64,000 bases of DNA from an uncultured Alphaproteobacteria bacterium (GCA_951801825.1 CATOOF010000001.1:380132-444131), one strand, 5' to 3'. Shown: positions 4,374 to 51,409, counted from the stretch's first letter. The notes: generated from the letters alone by a model not told the origin. Translations and numbers: made by a program.

Positions 4374-7300
4374 ATGGCAGTTATCCAGAAAATTAGAAAA
4401 TCTTTTGGTAAAAGTTTTTTGCAAACTCCGCTTCCTGATTTGGTTGAAATTCAATACGATTCCTACAAAGATTTCCTGCAGGCGGATGTAGAGCCGCAGA
4501 ACCGTAAAAATATCGGTTTGCAGAATGTATTTTCTTCTATGTTCCCAATCAAGGACTATGCGGGTATTGCCGACCTTGAATTCGTAGAGTATACACTGGA
4601 CAAACCTGTCTATAACGTCAAAGAATGCATGCTGCGTAATATGACATATTCCAGCAAGCTGAAGTTGAAGCTGAGATTGATTTTATGGGATGTCGCCGAA
4701 GATGGCAAAAAAACGCTGCGCGACATCAAGGAACAAGAAATATTTATGGGCGAAGTCCCACTTATGACCGAACGCGGCAGCTTTATTGCCTCTGGTGTGG
4801 AACGTGTTATCGTTTCCCAGATGCATCGCGCCCAGGGTGTGGTTTTCGCAACAACAAAAGAGGCCAAGGTCGCGGGCAATCCGACGACTTATACCGCGCG
4901 TATTATCCCTGAACATGGTTCATGGATTGACTTTGAAGAGGCCAAGGGTGTAATTTATGTCCGTATTGACCGTCGCCGCAAGGTTCCTGCAACGGTTCTG
5001 TTGCGCTGTCTGCCGACGGCCGAAGACGAAAAGAAATGGACAGCCGACCCCCGCAAGGCCGGTATCCGCGGCATGACAGATACAGAAATTCTGTCTGCGT
5101 TTTATAAGCGCATCCCGTTGTCGTTTGATGGTGCGTTATGGACCGGCGACACAAATGTATTCGAAGGATTGGATAAATATCGTCTGAACTATGACTTGGT
5201 AAATCCCAAGGATAAAAAGATTTTGGCCGCCAAAGGCGATCGTCTGAATGCAAAGCGTTTGACCAAAATCATGACTGCATCCAAAAAGTTTGGCATTGAT
5301 ACAGAGGCATTGATTGGCGAATATCTGTTCGAACCGATTACGAATGCAGGCGAAGTGTTATTCCCGGCGGGTACTGAAATTACCGAAGAAGTTTTGGCTG
5401 ATTTGTCTAAGCTGGATATAAAGGAAATCTCGCTGATTGCAATTGACAATACCACGGTTTCCGCGCATATGCGCAATACCCTGATGGCGGATAAAACAAC
5501 AAACCGCGAAGAGGCGTTGATTGAAGTTTATAACATCATCCGCCCGGGCGAGCGTCCGACATTAGAGGCCGCGATAAATCTGTTTACGCGCCAGGGATTT
5601 GATCCTGCATATTATGATTTGTCAGCGGTTGGCCGCTTTAAAATGAACAAGCGCCTGAAAATAGAATCCGGCAAAAAACCGGAAGATGAGCGCCTGCTGA
5701 CCAAGGAAGACTTCTTGGCTGTGTTGAAAACATTGACCAATATTATTGACCGCAAGGATACGGTTGATGATATAGACAATCTGTCAAATCGTCGTGTCCG
5801 CACGGTTGGCGAACTGTTGGAACAGAATTTCCGTACAGGTATGGTCCGTATAGAACGCCTGGTCCGTGAACAGTTGTCCAGCCCGAATATTGCCAATATG
5901 CAACCCCAGGACGTAATCAACGTAAAACCGTTGATGTCGCTGGTTGCGGAATTCTTGGGAACATCACAGCTGTCTCAGTTTATGGATGCATACAATCCGC
6001 TGTCTGAATTAGAGCACAAGCGTCGTATTTCTGCATTGGGGCCTGGTGGGTTGAACCGTGAACGTGCCGGCATTGACGTCCGCGACGTTCATCCGACGCA
6101 TTATGGCCGTCTGTGTCCTATTCATACACCCGAAGGTGCGAATATTGGTTTGATTAATCACTTGTCCGCCTATGCGCGTGTAAATCCGTATGGCTTTATT
6201 GAAACGCCGTACTATGTTGTAGAAAACAGCAAGATTACAGATAAACTGGTATATCTGACCGCGGACGAGGAACTGGGGCACAAAATCGCCCAGGGTAACA
6301 CGCCCACCACGGCGGCCGGCGTTTTGTCCGAAGATATGGTAACAGCCCGTGTAGACGGCGAATTTACCATGGTTCCGAAAAACGAAGTTGACTTAATCGA
6401 CGTTGAACCGCGCCAGGTTGTGTCCATTGCGACCGGTCTGATCCCGTTCGTTGAAAACGACGACGCGAACCGTGCGCTGATGGGTTCAAACATGCAGCGC
6501 CAGGCCGTTCCGTTAATGCGTGTTCAGGCGCCGTTGGTCGGTACTGGTATCGAACGCGAAGTGGCGCGTGATTCCCGCACGGGTAAGGTTGCAAAACACA
6601 GCGGCGTTGTAGAATCTGTTGATGCGAACCGCATTGTGGTAAAATGTATGAACAGCCGCAATGTTGTAACTGGTGTTGATATCTATAATCTGGAAAAGTT
6701 TGAACGTTCCAACAGTGAAACAGTTATTCATCAAAAGCCGCTGGTAAAGGTTGGCGACCGCATTTCCGCGGGCGACATCATTGCCGACGGTTCGTCAATG
6801 AACTATGGTGAACTGGCACTGGGGCGCAATGTATTGGTTGCCTTTATGCCATGGCGCGGATATAACTACGAAGACTCTATCGTTATCTCTGAGCGTATTT
6901 CGCGCGATGACGTTTTCACATCTATCAAGATTGTTGAAAAGGAATTCAAGGTTCGCGATACCCAGTTGGGGCCGGAAAGCCTGACGCGTGACATCCCCAA
7001 CGTTGGTGAAGAAGCGCTGAAGAACTTGGATGAATCCGGTATTATCTATGTCGGTGCGCGCGTAAAACAGGGTGACATTTTGGTCGGTCGTGTATCGCCG
7101 AAATCTGAAACGTTGCTGACCCCGGAAGAAGCGTTGTTGCGTAACATCTTTGGTGAAAAAGCGCTGAATGTAAAAGACACTTCGCTAAAGGTTGGGCCCA
7201 ACGAAGAAGGTACGGTTATCGGTGTAAACGTCTTGACGCGTCATGGCGTTAAGAAAGACGAACGTACCCAGATGATTGAACTGCAAAAGATTGAACAAAT

Positions 7301-40967: not shown

Positions 40968-41057
40968 GGATGGTTGGCAGAGCGGTCGAATGCGGCGGTC
41001 TTGAAAACCGTTGAGGGTGCAAGCCCTCCGGGGGTTCGAATCCCTCACCATCCGCCA
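40968..41057 (+). tRNA. tRNA-Ser (anticodon TGA), long variable arm
   Basis: GGATGGTTGGCAGAGCGGTCGAATGC...CTTGAAAA...long extra arm...GGTTCGAATCCCTCACCATCCGCCA. Followed by a terminator hairpin at 41086-41115. Confidence 0.9.
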
Positions 41058-41184
41058 GGAATCAGTTATATTTTGAATATGTAAACATATCACGCGCAGG
41101 GCCCCGGAAAATTGGGGCGTTTTATTTATAACTCATCCATGGTATATCGTGAATTTTTAGAAAACGGCAAATAAAAAACACTTT

Positions 41185-41470
41185 CTATACATTGGCCTTT
41201 TTCGCCCTGGCAGTAGGTTTCGGGATTATATTTGATGCTTTGGTGCAATGGCAAAGATTTTCACCACACTGCACGGCATCAAATAATTCCTGGGGTATGA
41301 TTGGGGCATGTTCGCCACGGGCGGTGGTGCCGGTAACCTTGCACTCAACATAACCCAGATATATCTTACTGCGTAGCATTCTGTGCAATGCCATTTTCTT
41401 GATTGGATTCCCGCCAATAACGCGACCGCCGTGCGTCGCCCATTTCTTGGCATAAATCCCGATGGTGGGC
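41185..41470 (-). pseudogene. Remnant of a large serine recombinase (recombinase domain only; no resolvase catalytic domain, frame disrupted)
   Basis: Translation ...KKMALHRMLRSKIYLGYVECKVTGTTARGEHAPIIPQELFDAVQ matches the Recombinase-domain block (NPxYxG ... HEPIIsxELFexVQ) of large serine recombinases. Sits immediately next to the tRNA-Ser 3' end. Confidence 0.5.
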
Positions 41471-42529: not shown

Positions 42530-42955
42530 TTACAAATTTACAATCTCAATATCCGGGAACTGGGTGGCGATATATTCAGCGGCGAGTCTGCGGTGACATT
42601 GTAAAGCGCTCTTCTCGGTGCAGAGTAAGCATATTCGGTCAAGGTCGGGCGGGGCGAGCCCATCGGTCGGATGGCGTGTGGTCAGCAATTCATGGTACAT
42701 ACGCTCATAATCAGGCCAGGTAATGCGGCCGTCTTTGTAGCCGGCAAGGATTTCGGTGCTTGGGGCGAATTCTGTATGGTATTCATATCGGTCGCCCAGT
42801 GCGGCGGCCAAATTTGTGCCGCTATAAAACGGAACAAAACGACTGGTGCGCCACAGCCGAATATCCCAAACGCAACTTGCTTGGGTCGCGTTCAGGATAT
42901 CCATAAAATCGTCGGGCTTTTTGCCACTGAAGCCAATCGTAAAAATCTTTGCCAT
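42530..42955 (-). CDS. DUF488 (YeaO-like) family protein
   Basis: MAKIFTIGFSGKKPDDF...DIRLWRTSR N-terminal block typical of DUF488. Confidence 0.55.
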   Translation of the reverse strand: MAKIFTIGFSGKKPDDFMDILNATQASCVWDIRLWRTSRFVPFYSGTNLAAALGDRYEYHTEFAPSTEILAGYKDGRITWPDYERMYHELLTTRHPTDGLAPPDLDRICLLCTEKSALQCHRRLAAEYIATQFPDIEIVNL

Positions 42956-42956
42956 A

Positions 42957-43259
42957 TCAGTACAAAAATAGCCCGTTTAGCATCAAATAGCAATGATTTT
43001 CCTGCATCAGGAACTTTCGTGCCAATCCTATGCGGCAATGAGCGTACTGACTGTTGGAAATAGCATTGTTCAGACTTTTGATGTCTTTATCTTTTTCAAA
43101 TATATCACGTAAGTACTTGCAACTGACCTTTAATTCATAGGTTTGTTTGGAATAGTCCGTAATACGGGCACGCAATTTACCGTCTTCTGTAAAGAATTCA
43201 ATATTGTGTGCCGGAATCAATATGGCACCTAACGAAGGACATTTGGTTTTCTGTGGCAC
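42957..43259 (-). CDS. Hypothetical protein (100 aa), translationally coupled upstream partner of DUF488
   Basis: Stop codon 1 nt before the DUF488 start. AT-rich. Confidence 0.35.
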   Translation of the reverse strand: MPQKTKCPSLGAILIPAHNIEFFTEDGKLRARITDYSKQTYELKVSCKYLRDIFEKDKDIKSLNNAISNSQYAHCRIGLARKFLMQENHCYLMLNGLFLY

Positions 43260-44582: not shown

Positions 44583-45485
44583 ATGTCACATGAAATTCTG
44601 TTGAAAGATATTTTGGATGGGATAAAGGTAGATTCGTCTGCAAATCGTCGGCGCAAGCTGCGTTTCAATACTTCATGGATTGATCAGGATACAAAGATAT
44701 TCAGAGATTTCCGGTCAATGTATATGGATAATGACGAATGTTTTGTGCCATGGACTTTGTCTACTCGGTCGAATAAGCAAAAAAGACTTAGTGACATTGA
44801 CACGGTTTTTCAGTTTATTGAAATAGAACCGCATAAATGGTTGTTTGTAGGCGCATATGAAATAATTGACTTGAATTTGTCTGCGTTTGACAAAGTTATT
44901 GGTAAACCATTTGATTATGCAAATGCAAAAAGATTGGCCGAATTTGATAAGTTATCTGACAGATTAGTGGTGGAACACACTAATACACCAAAGAAATTTT
45001 TTTATACTGATCCTAATATAATTGACAATGTAAAGGTTTATACTATTTTGCCGCGACCGTATCGCGGTTCTGCAGAAGAGTTTCCAGGATATGAAAATGT
45101 ATGTAAAGATTATAAATCATTGTCGCATTGTATAAAAGACTCTGCGTGGCATGATGCCCTATGCAATGTATATGGTGTATATGTTTTGACTGATACAAAA
45201 ACTGGGAAATTATATATCGGGTCTGCAACGGGGGCGGATGGAATATATGGCCGGTGGCAAACTTATCTGAAAAGGGGATATGATGATTCTGATAAAGACT
45301 ATCCGAATAAAAAATTGAAAGAGTTGGTAAAAAAAGAAGGTATTAAATATATCCAGGATAATTTTCAATACAGCATATTAGAAATTTTCCCAAAGACAGA
45401 TATTGGATGCAATAAAGCGTTAGAACGCGAAAGTTATTGGAAAAATGTATTCAAAACGCGTATGTTTGGATATAATGATAACTAG
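44583..45485 (+). CDS. GIY-YIG nuclease domain protein with an uncharacterised ~190-aa N-terminal domain
   Basis: C-terminal GVYVLTDTKTGKLYIGSATGADGIYGRW...ALERESYW...FGYN reproduces the GIY, YIG, Arg, Glu and Asn positions. Confidence 0.65.
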   Translation: MSHEILLKDILDGIKVDSSANRRRKLRFNTSWIDQDTKIFRDFRSMYMDNDECFVPWTLSTRSNKQKRLSDIDTVFQFIEIEPHKWLFVGAYEIIDLNLSAFDKVIGKPFDYANAKRLAEFDKLSDRLVVEHTNTPKKFFYTDPNIIDNVKVYTILPRPYRGSAEEFPGYENVCKDYKSLSHCIKDSAWHDALCNVYGVYVLTDTKTGKLYIGSATGADGIYGRWQTYLKRGYDDSDKDYPNKKLKELVKKEGIKYIQDNFQYSILEIFPKTDIGCNKALERESYWKNVFKTRMFGYNDN

Positions 45486-45569
45486 GAATATCTAATGCTG
45501 TCAAAAGAGAAATGGGCTTTAGAATAGGCAGAATACAAAGACGTTAGTTGTAACTTTGGATATACCATA

Positions 45570-45956
45570 TTGCATAAGACGGGTAATACAGAATACTTGT
45601 CGGGCGCGTTTCGCAGTGCATTTGCAGAATGGACGACATTTAAAGATATAGAAAGCATGGCGTCTTTTATCGCGCTGTTATTATCTAGCCGGGTATTGAT
45701 TGAAGTTGATGTTTTATCAGCAGAGATATTTCCAGAACTGGAGCAATCTAAAATATTACAGTTTGCGCCGGGAATGTTAGATACATCAACCTTTCAATAT
45801 ATGGCTTTTAATGATGCAATGGCTGTGCCGGAAGTTCGTGATATAGAGGCAGGCGTTGGCCCATGTTTATCTATTTTTACCGCTTTGCCAGAATTGCGCG
45901 AAATCCAAGATTTGGATAAGCGAATATTTATATATGTTGATTTTAGACGCGTTTAG
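45570..45956 (+). CDS. Hypothetical protein (128 aa). GC higher than its neighbours.
   Basis: Clean ORF, convergent with the ParB-like gene. Confidence 0.4.
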   Translation: MHKTGNTEYLSGAFRSAFAEWTTFKDIESMASFIALLLSSRVLIEVDVLSAEIFPELEQSKILQFAPGMLDTSTFQYMAFNDAMAVPEVRDIEAGVGPCLSIFTALPELREIQDLDKRIFIYVDFRRV

Positions 45957-45979
45957 GATTGGTTGTGCCGGCCAAGCCG

Positions 45980-46471
45980 TCAGATGTCGCCCCGGTGGCA
46001 CTGCTGGTCTTCGTCAGTCAGCGCGGGAATGGCATCCGCTTTCGGATCACTTGCTCCATCACCGTCCAGAATTAGGTCAATCTCGGCGGTCTCAAAACCG
46101 GAGATTTCCAGATTGAAATCCAGGTCCAGGTTGCTCAATTCACTGAATTCCAGATTCAACAATTCGATACTCCATTTGCCGAGTTCCGTAAGTTTGTTGT
46201 CCGCGATGCGGTACGCGCGTTTTTGTGCATCCGTCAGATGCGACAGAATAATTGCCGGCACTTCGATCATGCCGGCATCCTTGGCCGCCGCCACGCGCCC
46301 ATGCCCGGTGATGATTTCCAGATTCTCGTCCAGCAAGACCGGATTGATAAACCCGAACTCGCGGATGGATTCGCGTATTTTTGCGACTTGGACTTTGGTA
46401 TGCAGCTTCGGGTTGTTTTTGTACGCCCGAATGTCAGTTATTTTTATGTTTTGGATTTGTAAGTTGGTCAT
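45980..46471 (-). CDS. ParB-like nuclease domain protein (ParB/Srx N-terminal domain only)
   Basis: IREFGFINPVLLDENLEIITGHGRVAAAKDAG contains the ParB GxxR box. ATG 46471 has a GGAG SD; ORF-track 46582 is an upstream extension. ~50% GC inside an AT-rich island. Confidence 0.6.
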   Translation of the reverse strand: MTNLQIQNIKITDIRAYKNNPKLHTKVQVAKIRESIREFGFINPVLLDENLEIITGHGRVAAAKDAGMIEVPAIILSHLTDAQKRAYRIADNKLTELGKWSIELLNLEFSELSNLDLDFNLEISGFETAEIDLILDGDGASDPKADAIPALTDEDQQCHRGDI

Positions 46472-46687
46472 TAGACACTCCGTATAAGTTTTGTTAATCA
46501 TCACTATAAATTTTTTATAGGGGGGTATATATATGGAAAAGTGAAAGTTTACTTGAGTGTTCGCGCCACGAAACCTATACACTTTCCCTCTTATAAGGCG
46601 ATCTGAAAGTTTATGTTTTGATATATGGCTAAAAATAATGTGTTATACTTGAAAAAATGGCTGGTGTGATATATATAGAAATATACT

Positions 46688-48265
46688 ATGAGAATTAATA
46701 AGTCGGCGGGTTTAAACGAGTCAGAGCATCGTCTTGTAAAACTAGGCGAGAAGGTTTTTATGGGATTATGGAGTTATCCTAATCCCAAAATAAAAACCTC
46801 ATCAGGAACCCCGGAATTATGTGATTTGTTAGTTGTTTGTGGTAATAATGTACTAGTTTTCTCAGATAAAGATATCAAATTCAATGAGGATAAAGACTTA
46901 TTAGTGGCTTGGCGCAGATGGGAGCGGAAAGCTATATTAAAATCGATAAATCAGTTAAGACATGCCGAAAATATTATAAAAGATCATCCAGAAAAAATAT
47001 TATTGAATGATACAGATCCTTTTCCTTTGTCATTTCCTGCAAAGAGGGATTTAAAAATACGTTTAATATGTGTGGCAAATGGGGTAGCGGAAGCGTGTAA
47101 AAGATATTTTGGTAAAGGCTGTACAGGAAGTTTAAAATTTTCTAACTTAAACGGTTATACTCAGGTGTCAGATAAGGACTTGTCTAAGTTACCTGTTAAG
47201 GAAAGAGAAGAGTATAAAGAGAGTACGATATTCACTATAGCTGATTATGATTCATTAAAAACCTTTGTACATGTTTTTGATGATTATTCTTTCCCGTTTG
47301 TTTTACAGGAATTAGATACATTGACGGATTTCGTTAAATATTTGGAAGAAAAGGAGCGTTTTATAAGATCTGGGGTTGCGGTATGTTATACTGGCGAAGA
47401 GGATTTATTATACAATTATTTAAAAGAGTTTGATGAAGAACGCAATTGTCATACATTTGTAAATCCAAAAGAAACTAATGCAAATGTATTTATGTTTATG
47501 GAAGAGGATTGGAATTCATTTAAACAGTCCCAACAATATATTGCTCGTATAAAAGCTAACCAAAAAAGCTATTTCTGGGATCAGCTTGTTCAACATAATG
47601 CCCAATGTACATTGGCCGGTATTACTAAAATTTTTGCTACTGCGTCAGCAGACTGTGATATTGCTTTTCGGTATATGGCGCTAGAGGATCGATTGTCGCG
47701 CAGAGCATTTTCCGATAGAATGATAGCTGCAATCAGCAATTTCCCCGATAATTATACGCCAGACAATCACTATATGAGTGCATTTTTCTCTTTTGTGAAT
47801 GATGGATTATTGTACATATTTTTACAAATTCCCAAGGAAAACAACAGTTCTCATGGTGATTACTTAAAAGCTAGACGTGATAAAATGCAAATTTACGCCA
47901 ACTGTGCCAAAGCTAGATGTGAAATAGAGGGTAAGTTTGTAGACAAGGTTATATGTATTGCAACTGAGCCGATGAGAATTGTGAAAAATGTTGATATAGA
48001 CATAATGCTAATGGATATTAAAGAATGGAATACAGAACTACAGAACCATTGGGAATCGGCACGTCGAAACTTAAACATATTTAGAAAATCATTTAAAGAT
48101 CTGCAGCATGCAAAAGAAAAAGAATGGCCTGAGTCTCCGATTTTTGTGCAAAAACGAACTAAAAAGATAGGTCAAAATGATAAATGTCCATGTGGTAGTG
48201 GATTAAAATACAAGAAGTGCTGCGGAAGTGTTTTGAAACCCAAAAAACAAATACCTTACATATAA
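46688..48265 (+). CDS. NERD-like nuclease-related domain protein with a C-terminal SEC-C metal-binding motif
   Basis: N-terminus GEKVFMGLWS...ELCDLLVVCGNNVLVFSDKDIKF matches the NERD pattern (E...ExDhvvv...vfvxExK). The terminal CPCGSGLKYKKCCG is a SEC-C motif. Confidence 0.5.
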   Translation: MRINKSAGLNESEHRLVKLGEKVFMGLWSYPNPKIKTSSGTPELCDLLVVCGNNVLVFSDKDIKFNEDKDLLVAWRRWERKAILKSINQLRHAENIIKDHPEKILLNDTDPFPLSFPAKRDLKIRLICVANGVAEACKRYFGKGCTGSLKFSNLNGYTQVSDKDLSKLPVKEREEYKESTIFTIADYDSLKTFVHVFDDYSFPFVLQELDTLTDFVKYLEEKERFIRSGVAVCYTGEEDLLYNYLKEFDEERNCHTFVNPKETNANVFMFMEEDWNSFKQSQQYIARIKANQKSYFWDQLVQHNAQCTLAGITKIFATASADCDIAFRYMALEDRLSRRAFSDRMIAAISNFPDNYTPDNHYMSAFFSFVNDGLLYIFLQIPKENNSSHGDYLKARRDKMQIYANCAKARCEIEGKFVDKVICIATEPMRIVKNVDIDIMLMDIKEWNTELQNHWESARRNLNIFRKSFKDLQHAKEKEWPESPIFVQKRTKKIGQNDKCPCGSGLKYKKCCGSVLKPKKQIPYI

Positions 48266-48277
48266 ATAGGATGTAAG

Positions 48278-48454
48278 ATGCCGGTTTTTAATAGAAATGG
48301 AGAAGTGATAGGTGTAATTACAGAAACGCCAGATCCAGAAGGTGATTATGATAAATTTGGTTACGGGGTAGCAATTCCTATGGAATATATAGAACAGCTA
48401 GAAAATGAATATGATAGAAAAATAACTTTTATGGATGATATTAATTGTGTGTAA
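48278..48454 (+). pseudogene. Trypsin-fold protease C-terminal fragment, in frame with and separated by a single TAA from the preceding gene
   Basis: IGCKMPVFNRNGEVIGVIT...GYGVAIP parallels the GNSGGPLVNLNGEVIGINT...GIGFAIP block of HtrA/S1 proteases with Ser replaced by Cys. There is no upstream His/Asp region, so it is likely a remnant. Confidence 0.35.
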
Positions 48455-48487
48455 TTAAAATTATCTTTATAACTAATCGTTATTATA

Positions 48488-49873
48488 TTAATAAAATCCA
48501 AATTTTAATTTCCTATTCTCTATTTCTGATTGTAGCATATCAAAATTGAAATCAGAACGATTTATATTTTTATAAAATTTTAGTAAATGATAATGAAAAG
48601 AATTGTGAAATGTCTTTTTTATCATACTATCTAACAAAGTAATATAGTAATCTTCTCTGTTAAGCTCTTTCATTATTTTATATACATTAGATAGTCTAAA
48701 ATCCGGAGAATCTGCAAGAATAGTTTCATCTAGTATAGATGTAATAGTTGGTTCTAATAGTTCATTTTCAAGAAAGTTTATTCCTTTTTTCACTAATAGT
48801 GTAATTATTCGTTTTATCACTCTATCAGATCTAAATGCATATTTTTTCATTTTGTAGTCAAAGAACTCTCTAACAGCAGAATTAAAATTTTCTTTTGTGG
48901 TATCGTCGGATAAGCAACTAATAATATCAAAAGCTTGGTAAATTCTATATTCTGATGCTTTCATAATATGAACTTTACCAACATTTATATTAAGTCCAAT
49001 CTTATATAAAATTTTGGATGCTTCAAAGATATGTTTTTCTGCGGTATACTTATCGTTGCTAAATATTGCCATATCATCAGCAAAACGTATATAAGAAGAA
49101 CCGGAAGCTTGTGTTAAGTTAAATATGCGTTTGTCAAATTCTCTCAGATAAAAATTTGCAAGCTGTCTGGAACAATCGCCGACTTCGTCTTGCGGTATGC
49201 CGGTATGTCGACTAAAATATCCGTCAAAAGGTTTGTTCCAGTAATGTAAAAAGTACATTAGTAAATCAAGTTCATTGCTAAGAGTATTGGGTATTTTATG
49301 GCGCAGGCGTTTTTCTAATAAATCAACTTTTATATTGTCATAGAAGTTAGCTATATCAAATATTGCTACATAAAAATCCTCTCCGAATTTTGATTGATAA
49401 TCTAAAAATACGGAATATGCTTTTCTGGTATATTCATTCCATTCGTTCAACCATGCTCGAATATCTATTGCTGCAGCTGGAAAGTATTGGATTGTATCCA
49501 ACATAAGAAGGTCTTCAAAATTTTCTATTTCTTTAATTGGATTGCTAAATCTCCAGCCGCCAAATGTTCCTTGTGTCCTATCTTTTATGTCGCATATGTA
49601 ATCTTGGAGTTTGTTTAAACAGTAAAAATATGCACAATAGTCTGTAAATTCAAACGTTGGTACTATTCTGGCGACATTACCACCTTTGTTAAATATTATA
49701 TAGTCTCTTGGAATTGTCGGTTGATATGTATTGTTTGAGATGTCGTTATACAAATTAGATAAACCGGTTTGTATATCAATAAGAGGAAACTCTATTAGGG
49801 ATTGTTTTTTTACATGTTTTGCAAAAGGTAACATTGAAGCGATAAACTCAGACTTAGTTTCATGAATTTGCAT
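48488..49873 (-). CDS. Reverse transcriptase of the Abi/retron/DRT-like (non-intron, non-LTR) type, 461 aa
   Basis: RT motifs 1-2 (IFNKGGNVARIVP), A (VAIFDIANFYDNI), B' (GIPQDEVGDCSRQLANFYL), C (YIRFADDMAIFS), D (KIGLNINVGKVHI). ~140-aa alpha-helical C-terminal extension. No maturase or endonuclease domains. Confidence 0.75.
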   Translation of the reverse strand: MQIHETKSEFIASMLPFAKHVKKQSLIEFPLIDIQTGLSNLYNDISNNTYQPTIPRDYIIFNKGGNVARIVPTFEFTDYCAYFYCLNKLQDYICDIKDRTQGTFGGWRFSNPIKEIENFEDLLMLDTIQYFPAAAIDIRAWLNEWNEYTRKAYSVFLDYQSKFGEDFYVAIFDIANFYDNIKVDLLEKRLRHKIPNTLSNELDLLMYFLHYWNKPFDGYFSRHTGIPQDEVGDCSRQLANFYLREFDKRIFNLTQASGSSYIRFADDMAIFSNDKYTAEKHIFEASKILYKIGLNINVGKVHIMKASEYRIYQAFDIISCLSDDTTKENFNSAVREFFDYKMKKYAFRSDRVIKRIITLLVKKGINFLENELLEPTITSILDETILADSPDFRLSNVYKIMKELNREDYYITLLDSMIKKTFHNSFHYHLLKFYKNINRSDFNFDMLQSEIENRKLKFGFY

Positions 49874-50199
49874 AAATTTCCTCTTTTCTGGAATTATAAT
49901 AGGAAAGTGTTTGGTGGTCCAGAATATAGTTATACCTTGAGAGGTATATCAAAAACTTATGAAGCTGATATGTGTTGCCATAATTATGCCGGGTGTTGCG
50001 CCAATAATCATCAATAGTACCTAAATTTTCCCAGATAATACAAAATATTGCTAATTTGTGAGCCGAGATTAGCGATAAGTTTTTATGTTCGTATTCGAAA
50101 AAGTGAATAAAATCGCGTAGTTTTTCGGTTTGTATTCAAAATAATTTGATGGTTTTGCAATGATTTTTAGGTTGTCGCCAAATAATGGCAATCTATACC

Positions 50200-50390
50200 T
50201 TGGCGGGGGTGGGGCGGGGATGTTCCCTGATGTGGGCGGGTGAAATCCCTGTTCCTAATATAAAAATTCCCTGTTATTTTTGTGGGAAATTTTGTGAAAG
50301 TCCCGGAAATCGGGTGCAACGGGTGAAAACGGGGGCGCCGAGATGCCGAAAGTTCCCTGTTAATCCCTGTATTTTGTTGTATGGCGTTTG
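50200..50390 (+). repeat. Locally GC-rich array of five TCCCTGT(T) direct repeats (starts 50224, 50246, 50268, 50354, 50364; spacings 22, 22, 86, 10 nt) interleaved with three GGGTGAAA motifs
   Basis: Read directly from the sequence. The overlapping ORFs 50185..50439 (+) and 50167..50532 (-) are judged non-coding. Confidence 0.6.
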
Positions 50391-50450
50391 CCGTAGAATA
50401 TTGGTGCGCCGTCAGGAATATATTATTGAAATTGCTTAATCTTTTTACAA

Positions 50451-50485
50451 AACATCCGATGTCTGTCGGATGTTCTTTTATAGGT
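50451..50485. terminator. Bidirectional intrinsic terminator (AACATCCGA/TCGGATGTT 9-bp stem, 6-nt loop, T/A runs either side)
   Basis: Perfect inverted repeat followed by CTTTTATA on the plus strand and preceded by TTTTTACAAA. Confidence 0.65.
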
Positions 50486-50557
50486 TTTAAGGGCCAAATT
50501 CGACTTTTGTGGGGGTAAAAATAAACAGGCAACAGTTGTTATAAAAATGAAAACATT

Positions 50558-51067
50558 GTGTTTACGCCCAACACCCCAGCTGAAAAAGCAACATTTGAAA
50601 AGCCGGTTAATACAATGCCTGGTTACTATGCGGTATTTGATGACAAGCAATTTACATTGTATGTGGATGATAAACCGGTAATATCATGGGATGCTGTATC
50701 TGGTCGTTCCGGTTACCAAAGCCCAGAATGTCAAGACCAAAAATCCACAGGGCCAATCCCAGAAGGGACGTATGTTGCAAGACAGGAAAAACTACAGTTT
50801 ATGTCTGCTACAGATTGGCTTATTGGCTGGACGACTAAAGTTACTGATAGGGGTGTTTGGCCCGGGTCTTCAATGTCTTGGGGAAGCTCGCGTGTCTGGT
50901 TAGAACCATCAAAAGAAACAAATACGTTTGGTCGAGGTGGTTTCAGTATTCATGGTGGCGAGGAGCCCGGTTCTGCTGGTTGCATTGATCTAACAAGTGA
51001 AATGCCAGGGTTTGCAGATTGGTTCAAAAAGAATGGAAAAGATTTAATTATTAAAGTAGAGTATTAA
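50558..51067 (+). CDS. DUF2778/Tlde1-like L,D-transpeptidase-fold protein (candidate peptidoglycan-targeting toxin)
   Basis: GRGGFSIHGGEEPGSAGCIDL has the His...Ser-x-Gly-Cys catalytic arrangement of YkuD/Tlde1 domains. Start uncertain (GTG 50558 or ATG 50615). Confidence 0.6.
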   Translation: MFTPNTPAEKATFEKPVNTMPGYYAVFDDKQFTLYVDDKPVISWDAVSGRSGYQSPECQDQKSTGPIPEGTYVARQEKLQFMSATDWLIGWTTKVTDRGVWPGSSMSWGSSRVWLEPSKETNTFGRGGFSIHGGEEPGSAGCIDLTSEMPGFADWFKKNGKDLIIKVEY

Positions 51068-51082
51068 AAACAAAGGCATAAA

Positions 51083-51409
51083 ATGAAAAAAATATTAAAC
51101 ATAACAAGTTATGTCGCGACAATATGTTTGTTTTGTGCCCTGTATATTTTTTTATTTGATTTGGTTTGTATCGGCAAAATTTCAAAATTTAATCATATTT
51201 GGGCAAATGCTTGTCAGTTTGATATTGAAGGCGCATATCTAACCTGTATGACAAATTATGATGTTTCGTGCATTGTGTTGTTGTTGCTCATATTATCTTT
51301 TATGTTATTGCGGCTAATAAGAGTATATAACAAACGTGTCCTGCTCGTTCCGATTTGTGGTTTTTTATTGTTTGTGTTGTCTGTTATAACATGTTGGGGG
51401 CTTGTCTAA
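51083..51409 (+). CDS. Small multi-TM membrane protein, candidate cognate immunity protein
   Basis: Three hydrophobic helices, 15 nt downstream of the Tlde1-like gene. Confidence 0.45.
   Translation: MKKILNITSYVATICLFCALYIFLFDLVCIGKISKFNHIWANACQFDIEGAYLTCMTNYDVSCIVLLLLILSFMLLRLIRVYNKRVLLVPICGFLLFVLSVITCWGLV

Follow-up and report, generated by a model that had tools for sequence, protein, structure and literature searches.

A nuclease-like gene, the apparent tail of a protease, and a reverse transcriptase (RT) gene lie side by side in a 64,000-nucleotide (nt) stretch of DNA from an uncultured Alphaproteobacteria bacterium (GCA_951801825.1, CATOOF010000001.1:380132-444131; hereafter "the window"), which raises the question of whether these parts belong together or are neighbors by accident. 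The nuclease-like gene encodes a 525-amino-acid (aa) protein with a C-terminal SEC-C motif, and a 58-codon open reading frame (ORF) follows it in the same frame past a single TAA. An earlier note on this DNA described the arrangement correctly, as judged by the ORF table and the sequence, apart from the gap between TAA and ATG, which is 12 nt rather than 14. Past the TAA, the frame of the SEC-C gene reads ATA GGA TGT AAG ATG CCG GTT TTT AAT (translated IGCK-MPVFNRNGEVIGVITETPDPEGDYDKFGYGVAIP), giving the stretch I G C K M P V F N R N G E V I G V I T E T P ... G Y G V A I P. The note saw in it a trypsin-fold protease with Cys in place of the catalytic Ser, either a fossil of a gene disrupted when the island was assembled or an occasional read-through extension. 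We find that the locus very probably holds two unrelated neighbors, namely an intact gene of a SEC-C family carried by mobile elements and a protease pseudogene stub left behind by a cassette replacement. The 525-aa family is the only part of the locus with discovery potential.

The 58-codon ORF, by homology, is a pseudogene stub in which a borrowed start codon precedes the final ~55 codons of a gene for an HtrA-like serine protease. Pfam, NCBIfam, and PDB searches with the stub alone were marginal overall (E 0.002 to 1), the NCBIfam match being TIGR02037 (E 0.0018, positions 186-226) and the PDB match DegP (E about 1). Its protease homology was resolved only by an exhaustive HMMER scan of 1.84 billion representatives with a 62-residue query, which returned 31 matches at E<=1e-3. 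The best full-length match, P0243 (338 aa), aligns residues 281-335 with query residues 6-60 at 62% identity (phmmer, E 4.8e-17), and tblastn with P0243 maps the same residues to window 48281-48445 and detects no protease sequence elsewhere in the window. Full-length relatives of the stub span 320-350 aa and combine an N-terminal domain of ~150 aa belonging to no known family with a Trypsin_2 domain. The intact family (~335 aa) matches DegP/DegQ at E 4e-15 and, in our alignment A2, displays the motifs TAxHC, Asp, and GGNSGGPV(L/F)N. The parallel that the earlier note drew with the S1/HtrA protease block is thus borne out as Trypsin_2-type, DegP-like homology, and the stub keeps every family-invariant residue of its segment. 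Like HtrA, DegP, and DegQ (S1C), the intact relatives carry His, Asp, and Ser triad motifs (TAxHC, D, GGNSGGP), but they differ from these proteases in having neither a PDZ domain nor a signal peptide, and the window copy is reduced to the last ~55 residues. H173, D203, and S278 (P0243 numbering) have no counterpart in the window; lacking His, Asp, and Ser, the stub cannot be a protease. With its Shine-Dalgarno (SD) sequence and ATG intact, the 58-aa peptide may still be translated.

The point at which the protease homology begins can be mapped against two parental sequences. By blastn, window 48200-48282 aligns at 90% identity with positions 9513-9594 of L009, a relative of the SEC-C locus, through the end of the SEC-C gene, the TAA, an SD sequence (AGGAGG), and ATGCC. 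Window 48281-48464 aligns at 72% identity with positions 6841-7023 of the intact protease gene at L109, to just past the protease stop, and its first codon is precisely CCx, the Pro of GGNSGG-P. The dinucleotide CC at 48281-48282 belongs to both alignments. Since the 90% match to L009 runs through ATGCC, the residues I-G-C-K-M are the translated ribosome-binding site (RBS), spacer, and start codon of another gene, the spacer reading ATAGGATGTAAG in the window and TAGGAGGTTAT in L009. On these alignments, the apparent Cys nucleophile is an accident of the translated spacer, and the real Ser codon has been lost along with all that preceded it. The proposed Cys protease therefore falls away: the intact family has GGNSGGP, and the Cys codon lies in the spacer homologous to L009. 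The locus illustrates how translation of a spacer can produce the semblance of an active-site residue.

The gene to which the spacer and start codon belong is preserved in close relatives of the locus. The SEC-C proteins of L202 and L203 are 95% identical to that of the window and those of L009-L014 are 79% identical, and in both groups the SEC-C gene is followed, 10 nt on in the former and 11 nt on in the latter, by a gene for a 217-aa protein that has no significant Pfam match. The L009 and L202 copies of this gene are 63% identical to each other. With a gap of only 10-11 nt, it is probably translationally coupled to the SEC-C gene; it was not found beside more distant members of the SEC-C family and may be a clade-specific partner lost from the window. 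Window 46528-48255 matches L202 33-1755 at 92% identity, and homology resumes at 50196, where window 50196-50415 matches L202 2448-2667 at 84%. These flanking matches indicate that window 48283-50195 (1.9 kb) replaced the body of the 217-aa gene.

These alignments point to the following, very probable course of events. The ancestral element carried the SEC-C gene and, after 10-11 nt, the gene for the 217-aa protein. The latter was replaced, through illegitimate recombination, by a 1.9-kb piece of a different island that bore the 3' end of a protease gene and a convergent UG13b RT gene. At the CC junction, the former RBS and start codon were thereby joined in frame to the protease sequence from the Pro after the GG that follows the catalytic Ser. 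From the extent of the replaced block, the stub arrived together with the RT, and the protease and RT stops in the donor evidently lay 33 nt apart. A protease fossil created during island assembly, one of the two options in the earlier note, is what the junction and the replacement mapped against L009, L109, and L202 support. The locus is a cleanly resolved cassette replacement in a defense island, with both junctions mappable and the left one placed to within two bases. Coordinates are collected in Table 1.

Table 1 Features of the SEC-C locus, with positions in the window unless another locus is named.
Feature	Position	Strand	Basis or remark
NERD-like/SEC-C gene, 525 aa, intact	46688-48265	+	ORF table; TAA stop at 48263-48265
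PD-(D/E)xK (NERD-like) nuclease-fold domain	46688-47287	+	~aa 1-200; putative active-site E13, E43, D46, D60, K61
SEC-C zinc-binding motif	48176-48226	+	aa 497-513; ligands C500, C502, C511, C512
Spacer, SD AGGA (48268-48271), and ATG	48266-48280	+	From the displaced 217-aa downstream gene
58-codon chimeric ORF	48278-48454	+	ATG at 48278, stop 48452-48454
Left recombination junction, CC dinucleotide	48281-48282	+	Common to both parental sequences
1.9-kb replacing block	48283-50195		Protease stub, RT gene, ~320 nt upstream of RT
UG13b (UG/Abi class 1) reverse transcriptase, 461 aa	48488-49873	-	PADLOC RT_UG13b, E 6e-112
Truncated ParB-N6/N4 methyltransferase, N-terminal part only	45980-46582	-	Pfam: ParB_N only
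Displaced-type 217-aa gene	L009 9590-10243; L202 1776-2429

Two candidates were set aside during the mapping. The 217-aa gene downstream of the 79%-identical relative was considered as an intact version of the stub and was ruled out, the two being unrelated. A 9-nt direct repeat, TATACCTTG, with one copy at the right junction and the other close to where the RT gene starts, is about what would be expected by chance and was not used. Homologous islands had been named in the earlier note as the place to look for an intact protease next to the RT; none was found, and L009 and L202 have the unrelated 217-aa gene in that position.

The segment at which homology resumes, window 50196-50415, is GC-rich and non-coding, and is conserved with L202 (84%) and with L009. 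It contains repeated TCCCTGTTA, CGGGTGAAA, and GGCGGGG motifs, and it lies between the swapped slot and the Tlde1/YkuD gene, just downstream of the former and upstream of the latter. An operator array and a site specific to the element are both conceivable. A search of window 45500-51000 with Rfam gave no match.

The intact partner at this locus is the 525-aa protein. Its C-terminus is a bona fide SEC-C motif (PF02810; residues 497-513, E 2e-7, 31.2 bits against a Pfam cut-off of 20.4) with all four ligands, and both NCBIfam and PDB sequence searches match the protein at this motif only, the latter through the C-terminal peptides of YchJ and SecA (E 3e-6 to 1e-4). No known family besides SEC-C matched these proteins in Pfam or NCBIfam. 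As in SecA, YecA, and YchJ, the pattern CxCxSGx8C[C/H] sits at the extreme C-terminus, but the remainder of the protein is unrelated to all three. The RefSeq label "YecA family protein" attached to family members appears, from the extent of this similarity, to reflect the SEC-C motif only, and the motif itself is missing in ~15% of the homologues.

The N-terminus resembles nucleases at the level of fold. NERD (PF08378) gave no Pfam match to the 525-aa protein at E<=1, which leaves it short of the gathering threshold of 22.1 bits. Only 4 of the 41 family members in alignment A1 match NERD at E<=1, and the best of these, P0040, scores 20.4 bits (cut-off 22.1) over residues 7-99, which cover positions 3-93 of the 111 in the profile. 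An AlphaFold (AF2) model of the 525-aa protein computed with the same alignment (predicted local distance difference test, pLDDT, 89; predicted template modeling score, pTM, 0.87) has the restriction-endonuclease-like alpha/beta fold of the PD-(D/E)xK superfamily; the fold resembles the cleavage domains of FokI and BspD6I as well as Can2 and Shedu, and HindIII and McrC are also among the matches. A Foldseek comparison of the model with the PDB returned nothing significant, and a profile search of the PDB with alignment A1 retrieved SEC-C peptides only.

Residue conservation across 120 homologues is pronounced in this domain, with E13, E43, and D46 each present in 119, D60 in 117, and K/R61 in 119. 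As in NERD, the N-terminal helix carries G-x4-E, a strand opens with an invariant Asp (D46), and the next strand ends in D/K. The two families differ in the third PD-(D/E)xK element, which is S/F-D-K/R instead of (D/E)-x-K (S59-D60-K61 in the window protein): Ser or Phe takes the place of the E of E-x-K, and the acid has moved by one position (S-D-K). They differ further in that the domain is followed, in the SEC-C family, by a large region of unknown fold. This middle region of ~280 residues matches no recognized fold and is conserved, as seen from the near-invariant residues H195, D198, T211, D214, G236-E-E-D239, W297-D298, R335, R338, and R396. "NERD-like" is a fair structural description of the N-terminus, supported at the fold level and short of formal NERD membership. 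Of the NERD and SEC-C combination first proposed for this protein, the SEC-C half stands at 31.2 bits and the NERD half survives as a fold-level likeness.

This combination was thought to be uncommon, a view that its distribution overturns. At least 284 homologues (protein clusters) of ~480-535 aa occur in many phyla, and the family is found on 141 plasmids, 92 of them conjugative. It is a widespread and uncharacterized family, and its NERD-like plus SEC-C architecture is unstudied but common. A profile scan of genome contigs with the family alignment was dominated by the SEC-C motif and yielded only ~3 full-length relatives; a set of 50,697 phage genomes contained no relative of the 525-aa protein. 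At every locus examined, the family gene is a lone cargo gene. It lies between repA and a resolvase on IncN plasmids and between primase and capsid genes on a Klebsiella phage-like plasmid, and it adjoins an integrase on a Xanthomonas plasmid. In Escherichia coli, where 13 of 5,426 complete genomes carry it, the copy belongs to a P4-like satellite and adjoins ogr/psu, and a short contig shows a fragment of an integrase upstream of it. The homologue in the E. coli satellite has the accession WP_001696486.1 and the IncN copy WP_020324153.1. The P4 int-psu interval is reportedly, from the 2022 work of Rousset and colleagues, a known defense hotspot. The closest relatives (56-79% identity) reside in serine-recombinase, terminase, and ParB-methyltransferase elements, with neighbors that include UvrD-like helicases, restriction-modification (RM) systems, AbiJ, SieB, and Fic; at L103, the family gene stands beside RM, AbiJ, and SieB. 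The IncN plasmids, on which the family travels as a single gene, are of clinical relevance, and the family is not represented in the 2023 PADLOC models.

We tentatively suggest that the NERD-like/SEC-C family may be an unrecognized single-gene anti-phage or anti-plasmid nuclease that uses its SEC-C knuckle as a licensing sensor or tether, a proposal to which we give somewhat less than even weight. Its fold, conservation, and context suggest that the 525-aa protein would act as a stand-alone defense or exclusion nuclease, with the SEC-C knuckle serving to tether or to sense, in the manner of SecA, YecA, and YchJ. Its carriers include IncN plasmids, P4-like satellites, and serine-recombinase elements, and SEC-C tails are also present on the PADLOC E2/E1-E2 and PDC-S12 models. 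The only precedent that we found in the literature on SEC-C with NERD or defense is Rugutis, a lactococcal single-gene SEC-C protein with demonstrated phage resistance (PMC11381338). Rugutis resembles the 525-aa protein in being stand-alone and plasmid-borne and in having a SEC-C motif within an otherwise unrecognized fold. It differs in its N-terminal SEC-C motif, its length of 359 aa, and the lack of any reported nuclease fold, and we claim no homology between the two. If the family is indeed a defense or exclusion factor, it would constitute a new single-gene system and would place SEC-C motifs, also seen repeatedly at the C-termini of further defense-associated proteins, in a functional setting.

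Less probable, though it retains appreciable weight, is that the family has no part in defense and either serves mobile elements in maintenance or DNA processing or binds DNA without catalytic activity. In favor of this are the location near repA on IncN plasmids, the non-canonical ExK motif, the absence of matches in the 50,697 phage genomes, and the lack of any defense annotation for the family. These observations have to be set against a family that occupies variable cargo slots rather than core positions, whose E. coli copy sits beside ogr/psu in a P4-like satellite and whose L103 copy sits beside RM, AbiJ, and SieB, whose occurrence is patchy (the 13 E. coli genomes noted above), and whose putative catalytic residues are nearly invariant.

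Several points weigh against our interpretation of the locus. In the literature, no experiment or paper ties this SEC-C family to a function or to defense, and PADLOC-DB v2 matched the 525-aa protein at the SEC-C tail only (PDC-S12 and E2 models; residues 479-520), with no full-length match. The nuclease motif, to judge from its residues, is non-canonical (S59-D60-K61 versus the NERD E-x-K), which leaves catalytic competence putative. No database yielded the donor arrangement, in which a full protease gene would converge on this RT. The stub contains neither a stop codon nor a frameshift and has a good SD sequence, such that expression and some peptide function may be possible. All contigs that carry the stub were retrieved by exact protein identity and therefore hold no information on selection acting on it.

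It is nonetheless improbable that the protease tail was exapted here as a working 58-aa protein that would, for instance, cooperate with the SEC-C protein or the RT as a regulator or decoy. The ORF has an SD sequence (AGGA) at a spacing of 6 nt from its ATG, is open, keeps all invariant residues of its segment, and occurs on at least 22 independent contigs; its intactness, however, fits a recent event, the SEC-C gene DNA being 92% identical to that of the pre-replacement relative, and a word-indexed search of 5.8 billion proteins matched the stub only to itself at this breakpoint. The same protease family has decayed elsewhere with breaks in other places, as a 91-aa remnant at L114 that is broken at about residue 293 and as a frameshift at residue 155 in L115-118. 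Such differing breakpoints are what random decay predicts; they speak for ordinary decay and against a mini-protein under conservation.

The intact relatives of the stub merit a remark of their own. This ~335-aa cytoplasmic protease family (L109-L198, for example L109 6001-7017) is encoded by a lone gene with variable neighbors, which at L109 include Hachiman, GmrSD, and PDC-S01, and it is pseudogenized in three of the lineages seen. The family may itself be a single-gene defense candidate.

The RT gene, which is convergent on the protease stub, invites the idea of a multi-gene system. PADLOC assigns the RT to RT_UG13b, with residues 16-452 aligned to model positions 13-425 of 430, and Pfam recognizes RVT_1 as well. 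For UG13b, defense has been predicted from island context, and protease-associated UG9 RTs have been described (Mestre et al. 2022, PMC9226505). The intact protease family finds its best PADLOC match in the protease part of RT-Protease_XI (E from 3e-19 to about 1e-18; a resemblance only), and only 33 nt apparently separated the ends of the protease and RT genes in the donor. By analogy with type XI retrons and UG9, the SEC-C protein, the protease, and the RT might then form, or once have formed, one multi-gene defense system.

We regard such a system as very unlikely, given how these genes behave elsewhere. The neighbors of the RT homologues at 57% and 54% identity are unrelated and include neither a SEC-C gene nor a protease; at 81 metagenomic loci of the protease family, there was no RT, no SEC-C relative, and no conserved neighbor; and SEC-C relatives, including the one at 95% identity, occur without the RT. 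The intact protease family does match the protease half of the type XI retron RT-protease. Unlike the type XI retron and UG9 variants, however, the genes here are unfused and convergent rather than co-oriented, the RT belongs to UG13b and is not a retron RT, and RT and protease co-occur at 0 of the 81 protease loci. The significance that the earlier note attached to the position beside the RT finds no support in these comparisons.

Some UG/Abi RTs use a neighboring non-coding RNA. In the window, ~320 nt upstream of the UG13b RT (49874-50195) moved within the 1.9-kb block, and the RT homologues at L105 and L106 have much shorter upstream spacers.

Occasional read-through of the TAA, which would lengthen the NERD/SEC-C protein to 587 aa by a C-terminal piece of a Cys-nucleophile trypsin fold, can be dismissed almost outright: the 525-aa and 58-aa ORFs do share a frame and the Cys codon does fall eight residues before N-G-E, at the position of the Ser in GNSGG, but TAA is an efficient stop codon, the extension comprises the last strands of the second barrel only, with no His and no Asp, the I-G-C-K-M codons are homologous to the L009 SD sequence and spacer, none of the 120 homologues listed has a protease domain, and the spacers between the SEC-C gene and the downstream ORF (12 nt in the window, 11 nt in L009, 10 nt in L202) put the sister loci out of frame, so that the shared frame in the window is accidental and read-through is left without comparative support.

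The SEC-C module is part of a larger island at 41-51 kb of the window, where the GC content falls from about 46% to 28-34%. The island abuts a tRNA-Ser(TGA) gene at 40968-41057, and after this gene, within window 40968-41460, lies a ~60-70-codon fragment of a large serine recombinase homologous to the L009 and L098 recombinases. The tRNA-Ser gene and the recombinase fragment are the degraded integration end of the island, and the 41-51 kb region is a decayed integrative element with defense-type cargo, comprising UzuA-like, DUF488, truncated ParB-methyltransferase, and Tlde1/YkuD genes. The ParB-N6/N4 methyltransferase is intact in L009 (419 aa). Homology to L009 begins abruptly at 45957, which, on this alignment, is a second breakpoint that bounds the SEC-C module on the left.

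Three further cargo regions deserve mention. Window 44583-45485 encodes a 300-aa GIY-YIG protein with a full-length match to PADLOC UzuA (Uzume; E 1.5e-48). At window 42530-43259, a 100-aa ORF of unknown family directly adjoins the gene of a DUF488 protein (PADLOC PDC-M45C, E 7e-30); both lie on one strand and may be a candidate two-gene module. Finally, window 50558-51409 encodes a 169-aa Tlde1/YkuD protein, with an L,D-transpeptidase-like toxin domain, followed by a 108-aa hydrophobic ORF, a layout that resembles an effector-immunity pair.

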